A stretch of DNA of 64,000 bases from Xylographa opegraphella (lineage: Eukaryota), in assembly GCA_022813865.1 (NCBI GenBank), contig JALDZX010000029.1, positions 1 through 64,000 of the forward strand. Direction: 5' to 3'. The notes beneath the pieces were generated by a model. That model was not told where the DNA came from, ran no database searches, and saw nothing but the letters and a program-made list of their open reading frames with translations. The position numbers and the translations under genes were made by a program. Position 1 is the first letter of the stretch. Each line of letters starts with the position of its first letter. Below, piece by piece: positions 1,856 through 2,690 of the stretch.

Positions 1856-2690
1856 ATGGATCAAGTAAAGTTGGCAAAGATGCAACAATCGGTTCGAATC
1901 GGTGAGTCCTTTGCAGCATCTGGAAAGTTGGAGCTGCGGTCGTAGTATTCGGGTGCCGCTCACCCGTAAGGCTCGCACTCACGCTGACTCTGTATCTACA
2001 CAGGGTAAGCATACTGTTCTCTCCTGCTTCGCCTTGTCCAAGTTGCGGATGTTCTCCTTTAGTCAAGTTAGATAATTGGTCTCTGGCAGCTAACGAAAAT
2101 ACTGTATGCAGAGGGAAAGGCACGCCGAGAAGGAAAATGAAGAAAGTCCATAAGTCCTCTGGCACAGATGACAAGAAGCTTCAGACTTCTCTCAAGAAGA
2201 TGAATGTACAACCAATTCAGGCCATCGAGGAAGTAAATATGTTCAAGGAGGATGGCAATGTTATCCACTTTGCGGCTCCTAAAGGTGCGTTACAGCATGC
2301 ATAGAGCTAGAGAGATTCCAGTAATGTCACAAGCCGTGGAGTGTAGCGGATCCCAGCCACTACGCTTTCGCTAACATCATTGGAACATGACTGCCATCAT
2401 TTAATGTACTTCCTACACGTTTGATACTGACTGCCGTTTCAGTCCACGCTTCGGTGCCATCAAATACCTTCGCCATCTACGGCAATGGAGAGGATAAGGA
2501 GCTTACGGAGCTCGTGCCCGGAATTCTTAATCAGCTTGGCCCTGACAGCCTGGCGTCCCTCCGCAAACTTGCTGAAAGCTACCAGAGCATGCAAAAGAAG
2601 GATGGCGAGGATGGCGATAAGAAAGAAGATGACGATGATGATATTCCAGATCTGGTGCCGGGCGAGACCTTCGATAGCAAAGTCGAATAA
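1856..2690 (+). CDS. EGD1: Nascent polypeptide-associated complex subunit beta (BTF3)
   Basis: Exons 1856-1901, 2004 (1 nt), 2112-2284 and 2443-2690 give [40 protein letters not shown]...[34 protein letters not shown]...DDDIPDLV, the NAC-beta signature. Confidence 0.95.

Follow-up and report, generated by a model that had tools for sequence, protein, structure and literature searches.

Can an exon of a housekeeping gene be as short as one nucleotide? The question is raised by the NAC-beta gene (EGD1/BTF3) of Xylographa opegraphella, which lies at 1856-2690 on the plus strand of the window, the whole stretch of 64,000 nucleotides analyzed here (contig JALDZX010000029.1, positions 1 to 64,000). 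An initial reading made from the letters of this DNA, here called the sequence-only reading, had proposed that G2004 is an exon by itself, supplying the middle base of the first glycine codon of the GGKG motif. Both the reading frame and the conservation of the arrangement in 62/62 distinct unspliced intervals bear out this proposal, and G2004 is very probably a true exon of NAC-beta, one nucleotide long and constitutively included.

Structure and Identity of the NAC-beta Gene

The gene has four coding exons and three introns. The coding part of exon 1 (1856..1901) begins with the ATG at 1856 and ends with ATC G, the last G being the first base of a glycine codon. Intron 1 (1902..2003, 102 nt) has its donor gtgagt at 1902-1907, its branch site gctgac at 1983-1988, and an acceptor, acag, ending at 2003. 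It is followed by the candidate one-nucleotide exon G (2004..2004), the middle base of the glycine codon G-G-A, and then by intron 2 (2005..2111, 107 nt), with the donor gtaagc at 2005-2010, the branch site gctaac at 2089-2094, and an acceptor, gcag, ending at 2111. The distance from the branch A to the acceptor is 16 nt in intron 1 and 18 nt in intron 2. The acceptor and donor that border the lone base are canonical (cag/G/gtaagc, slashes marking the splice borders), and both introns are complete, each with a branch site of its own. Exon 3 (2112..2284) opens with A GGG AAA GGC and encodes GKGTPRRK together with the start of the NAC domain. An ordinary phase 1 intron, intron 3 (2285..2442), which served as a control, separates it from the coding part of exon 4 (2443..2690), which extends to the TAA stop at 2688-2690. 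When the sequence was re-read, all coordinates that had been given for exon ends, donors, branch sites, acceptors, and the lone G proved correct.

Exon 3 alone matches the Pfam family NAC (PF01849) with an E-value of 2.4e-15 and 56.6 bits (cut-off 21.3), and a protein search returned 925 homologues, of which those named by their source are mostly NAC subunit beta. The window gene therefore has the NAC domain by which NAC-beta/BTF3/Egd1 is recognized, and its exons 3-4 show 99% identity to Xylographa proteins. Ahead of the NAC domain lies the N-terminal basic segment ..IGGKGT.RRK.., which is present only when G2004 is included; in NAC-beta, this segment functions in ribosome binding. The near-identical protein P0009, which has the same residue as the window protein at 152 of 155 positions, matches the human BTF3 chains with an E-value of 5.7e-48, and its alignment with human BTF3 is free of gaps across VRIGGKGT.

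The surroundings of the gene are uneven in composition. An AT-rich block with a GC content of 0.16-0.21 occupies positions 1-1500 of the window and stops about 350 nt short of the NAC-beta start codon; in the rest of the window, the GC content is 0.46-0.56. The block may be a repeat-degraded, RIP-type isochore, although this is a guess.

Reading Frames With and Without G2004

Joining 1856-1901, 2004, 2112-2284, and 2443-2690 gives 468 nt in a single frame, encoding a 155-residue protein with RIGGKG. When G2004 is omitted (donor 1902 to acceptor 2111), the product is 467 nt long, the frame is lost, and a TGA at 2138..2140 is met after 24 codons, which is the early stop that had been predicted for skipping. 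The base is thus needed both for the frame and for a conserved residue.

The sequence-only reading had gone further and held that nothing except a one-nucleotide exon would work. This holds for RIGGKG; it does not hold for the frame, since paths with a single intron are open too. One of them was missing from that reading: a tandem AG (2112..2113), two bases past the acceptor of intron 2, can be joined to the strong donor at 1902, and the resulting single intron (1902-2113) leaves 465 nt in frame, encoding 154 residues with RIGKG, one glycine fewer. Other in-frame paths with one intron lead from donor 1902 to acceptors 2062, 2071, 2089, and 2119, and a further one leads from a weak donor at 1906 to acceptor 2111. 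Because several such paths are in frame, the frame alone is no proof of a one-nucleotide exon.

Conservation of the Lone G in Orthologous Loci

Metagenome contigs were scanned with the exon-3 peptide, which gave 565 matched stretches, 426 of them encoding relatives; the best 80 were analyzed. Exon 1 and exon 3 were recognized by pattern in 78 of these best 80 of 426 loci. One of the other two, L020, is an intron-less contig that escaped the pattern because it has no start codon; the second, L048, is unspliced, and its exon 1 was not located on the short contig. In 78/78 loci, exon 1 ends with ..RI plus a G followed by GT, and AG plus one base precedes exon 3, so that one base of the glycine codon is missing unless the interior of the interval supplies it.

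With the window included, the loci comprise 64 distinct intervals, of which 2 are intron-less and 62 are unspliced (61 metagenome loci and the window). The sequence-only reading, which had this one genome to go by, had suggested aligning EGD1 loci for a conserved cag-G-gt arrangement. In the loci analyzed here, every orthologous unspliced interval has the same arrangement: all 62 are split into two introns by AG/G/GT, and YAG/G/GTA is present in each of them, within otherwise unalignable sequence. The first introns are 59-487 nt long and the second introns 58-190 nt, in both cases with the window counted, and 58/62 first introns and 61/62 second introns have an NCTRAY branch motif at a distance of 5-60 nt from the acceptor.

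Grouping of the 62 intervals gave 39 clusters between which BLASTN finds no alignment, so the arrangement is kept while the intron sequence diverges. With one representative taken per cluster (n=39), the information content is close to zero except at the splice signals. A pyrimidine at -3 and an A at +3 are found in 39/39 representatives and a G at +5 in 34/39, and the pyrimidine at +6 is also informative; the invariance of the AGGGT core follows from the way the site was chosen, but the conservation of the flanking Y, A, and G does not.

Controls indicate how often such a site arises by accident. AGGGT occurs in none of 51 distinct sequences (5337 nt) of intron 3 of the same loci, and it is found on average in 14% of shuffled intervals, compared with 62/62 of the real distinct intervals. 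In the 64-kb window, AGGGT by itself is found at 55 and 45 places on the two strands, and the longer motif YAGGGTANG occurs once on both strands together, at 2001. The presence of AG/G/GT in the NAC-beta interval exceeds chance.

Spliced Products of Relatives

A search for RNA runs found none from X. opegraphella itself; it returned two metatranscriptomes, X1 and X2, with word shares of 0.06 and 0.05, whose contigs come from relatives only. These contigs were placed on the window at 80% likeness, and most are less than 90% alike; the best of those that span the site is about 94-95% alike and differs at 8 of 172 exon-3 bases. One X1 contig and one X2 contig of relatives have a joint from 1901 to 2111 in which 209 bases are skipped, not 210, which means that one extra G stands between ATC-G and A-GGG. 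In two more X2 contigs, an equivalent reading, ..ATT G / G A.., is found, with diverged exon-1 ends. The aligner cannot tell whether the extra G comes from 1902, 2004, or 2111, and it is assigned to 2004 because of the canonical splice sites and the conservation. As for the control, the joint of intron 3 appears at 2282 to 2441 (cut +2) in 5 X1 contigs and 2 X2 contigs.

Four intron-less contigs of relatives have the codons GGT, GGT, GGA, and GGA, all with GG (GGT in L037 and L051, GGA in L038). Short-contig proteins agree with this: 21 of 26, P0009 among them, read RIGGKG, and the remaining 5 start in introns or read through them. From their size and the absence of introns, the short contigs are taken to be transcripts. 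Among the loci, there is no matched pair of genome and mRNA; the best is L037 with L045, L046, and L049, at about 80% nucleotide identity.

Two observations were made in passing. One X2 contig (depth 42.8) has joints at 1904 to 2157 and 2284 to 2625 that match no splice site, and it is probably a divergent relative that was badly placed. L037, L045, L046, L049, L054, and L062 encode a NAC-beta with a long acidic C-terminal extension, with 161-167 residues from exon 3 on, and the group has an unusually long first intron of 200-222 nt; L037 itself is an intron-less contig from a relative of this group, at about 79% nucleotide identity.

Alternative Readings

It has been suggested, as an addition to the one-nucleotide exon and not as an alternative to it, that inclusion of G2004 is regulated: joining 1902 to 2111 would give the premature TGA, and nonsense-mediated decay (NMD) of the skipped form would tune the dosage of NAC-beta. 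The stop is reached after 24 codons, upstream of intron 3, and the long retention of so awkward a structure invites a functional reason. Retention can be explained otherwise, since there is no easy way to lose just these introns, and the skipped form was seen in none of the contigs and proteins of relatives, a comparison in which assemblies drop rare forms. An early stop follows any frameshift, so the stop itself is no evidence for control by NMD, and nothing else was found in favor of this proposal of the sequence-only reading. We regard regulated skipping as unlikely.

In a second reading, the gene has one intron from 1902 to 2113, G2004 is intron sequence, and the protein is the RIGKG form. 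The path keeps the frame for 154 residues and uses a strong donor, and this is how the public models P0002 and P0059, both of relatives, are annotated. It depends on the third base of the glycine codon. This base is variable among the 62 intervals (A in 24, C in 18, T in 16, G in 4), so that rescue by a tandem AG is possible only where it is A; the escape is absent from 38/62 intervals, in which the third base is C, T, or G, and these nevertheless keep AG/G/GT. The products of relatives also speak against it, as 21 of the 26 short-contig proteins and all four intron-less contigs have GG, and RIGKG was read in none of these 26 proteins and four contigs; human BTF3 has GG as well. Moreover, the first AG past a branch site is the one normally used, which counts against acceptor 2113, and a single intron from 1902 to 2113 would not account for the internal splice signals (donor, acceptor, and branch site) that are conserved. 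This reading is very improbable.

A third reading also invokes one intron, with borders shifted to non-canonical sites (TG..AG from 1903, or GT..CA to 2110), so that the extra G of the mRNA would be G1902 or G2111. The placed contigs fit a G from either position equally well. Such borders demand non-canonical sites though canonical ones are on hand, and they do not explain why YAG/G/GTANGY is invariant, together with a second branch site, in 39 clusters that are mutually unalignable; we consider this reading barely credible.

Two candidates were rejected on the structure of the site. A stwintron ([D1,2] or [A2,3]) would have an interrupted splice signal, but all signals here are intact: the first acceptor is followed by G and then an intact GTAAGC, and the base before the second donor is G, not A. 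The view that the locus is not a D1,2 stwintron stands accordingly, the two introns being complete and consecutive. A zero-nucleotide recursive splice site does not fit either, since G2004 separates acceptor and donor and is needed in the mRNA.

Splicing Mechanism

The best explanation is that two complete U2-type GT-AG introns interrupt one glycine codon, the first in phase 1 and the second in phase 2, which would leave only the middle G of the codon between them and yield the 155-residue protein with RIGGKG in its N-terminal segment. Intron definition would allow each of them to be recognized alone, the signals being the donor, a YAG acceptor, and a CTRAY branch site that lies 16-18 nt before the end of the intron. 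The introns would then be removed one after another in the manner of recursive splice sites, with one base left behind. Since a few bases belong to both the acceptor of intron 1 and the donor of intron 2, stepwise removal is most likely; two spliceosomes could hardly occupy the shared border together. Either order of removal would regenerate good splice sites. Ordered, sequential splicing, which had been put forward for this locus before, is therefore plausible on steric grounds and by analogy with stwintrons and recursive splicing; splicing intermediates were not observed.

The gene offers a ready natural substrate for studying how the spliceosome handles two introns that share a border, and it could reveal the order in which the introns are removed and what prevents skipping.

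Taxonomic Spread and Age

Loci were assigned to classes by their best protein identity (92-100%) to named proteins and by nothing else. On this basis, loci with the arrangement are nearest to Pleopsidium (99%), Letharia/Pseudevernia/Alectoria (95-98%), Trichophyton (100%), Exophiala (96-100%), Plenodomus/Delitschia (97%), Sphaerosporella (95-96%), and Mollisia (93%). The groups indicated by best identity are Lecanoromycetes, Eurotiomycetes (Onygenales and Chaetothyriales), Dothideomycetes, and relatives of Pezizales. If the assignment is right, the structure was present before Pezizomycetes and the other classes diverged. Judging from the best 80 of 426 loci, the arrangement was probably inherited from an early ancestor of Pezizomycotina.

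A one-nucleotide exon thus appears to be common to a whole fungal subphylum in an abundant gene of the essential type, and its spread possibly takes in genetically tractable molds. A stronger claim would be that no known one-nucleotide exon is older or more widespread, and that this one has been kept since the Pezizomycotina ancestor as an NMD-coupled control point for NAC-beta dosage; in this full form, the claim is unlikely.

Relation to Known One-Nucleotide Exons and Other Systems

In Drosophila and vertebrates, recursive zero-nucleotide splice sites (YAG/GTAAG) allow very long introns to be removed in two steps. They share with NAC-beta the juxtaposition of acceptor and donor; recursive sites keep no base, whereas NAC-beta keeps one, and both NAC-beta introns are only about 100 nt long, unlike the very long introns that recursive sites serve.

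The stwintrons of Pezizomycotina ([D1,2] and [A2,3]) consist of one intron nested in another, such that a splice signal of the outer one is broken up by the inner one and no exon base lies between them; intron definition is described as the rule in this group in the relevant passages of the stwintron work (PMC5587772). As described there, stwintrons resemble the NAC-beta case in requiring two consecutive U2 reactions, in occurring in the same fungal group, and in having intron positions 1 nt apart (PMC5587772). They differ in that both NAC-beta introns are complete and independent.

One-nucleotide exons are already established. The exon of Arabidopsis APC11 has been proven by mutagenesis (Guo and Liu, 2015; PMC4674806). 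According to the parts of that report bearing on it, the APC11 exon resembles that of NAC-beta in being constitutive and essential for the frame, in lying between AG and GT, and in having been overlooked by annotation, and the authors likewise propose intron definition and stepwise removal (PMC4674806). The base is A in APC11, where its identity was shown to be irrelevant, and G in NAC-beta (PMC4674806). The two cases also differ in depth and in kind of evidence: in the same account (PMC4674806), the APC11 exon is not deeply conserved, rice APC11 having no introns, whereas the NAC-beta exon is conserved, and the former was shown by mutagenesis, whereas the latter is argued here from comparison alone.

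Among fungi, a one-nucleotide exon in the Fusarium P450 gene CYP621A, supported by SRA reads, is billed in the passages describing it as the first in a fungal gene (PMC12940212). It shares with NAC-beta the AGGGT core, a G in the middle of the codon for a conserved glycine, and wrong gene models (PMC12940212). As far as these passages go, it is found in one P450 subfamily of one genus and is rarely expressed (PMC12940212), whereas NAC-beta is a housekeeping gene in which the arrangement is found in 62/62 distinct intervals and in several classes. A long-read annotation of Coprinopsis cinerea contains 13 one-nucleotide exons, spread over 13 genes, according to the passage concerned (PMC12230235), which shows, in line with the NAC-beta case, that fungal spliceosomes process such exons routinely; C. 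cinerea is a basidiomycete, and the passage gives neither gene names nor conservation data (PMC12230235).

A search of the literature outside subscription journals, supplements, and database feature tables found no micro-exon paper for NAC-beta/BTF3/Egd1, nor was a paper found that joins stwintrons with NAC. Among one-nucleotide exons, the new NAC-beta case stands out by its unusual age, by its breadth, and by having a housekeeping gene as host.

Faulty Public Gene Models

That gene predictors miss one-nucleotide exons, as the sequence-only reading had remarked, is borne out by the public models of this family. Among 26 mostly genome-derived NAC-beta models, only 3 read VRIGGKG; the 2 that read VRIGKG are the models of relatives mentioned above, and 21 are garbled or start elsewhere. 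The faulty models (among P0002-P0214) have read-through, spurious residues, a lost glycine, or a false start. A break between VRI and GKG is also found in models named as Sordariomycetes, Leotiomycetes, Pezizales, Dothideomycetes, and Eurotiales; a second protein search, which returned only proteins of at least 182 residues, mainly over-long models, was used for names only.

The lone G between two ordinary introns explains why automatic NAC-beta models are so often wrong. The error is systematic, with models from many classes broken exactly between VRI and GKG, and a simple rule for repair is to seek YAG/G/GTA between a phase 1 donor and a phase 2 acceptor. The few correct public models, such as P0017, P0062, and P0090, may already encode the one-nucleotide exon silently. 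In the Xylographa parallela model P0005 (RIANGVHASRGKG), a false acceptor analogous to the internal one at 2089 of the window appears to have been used.
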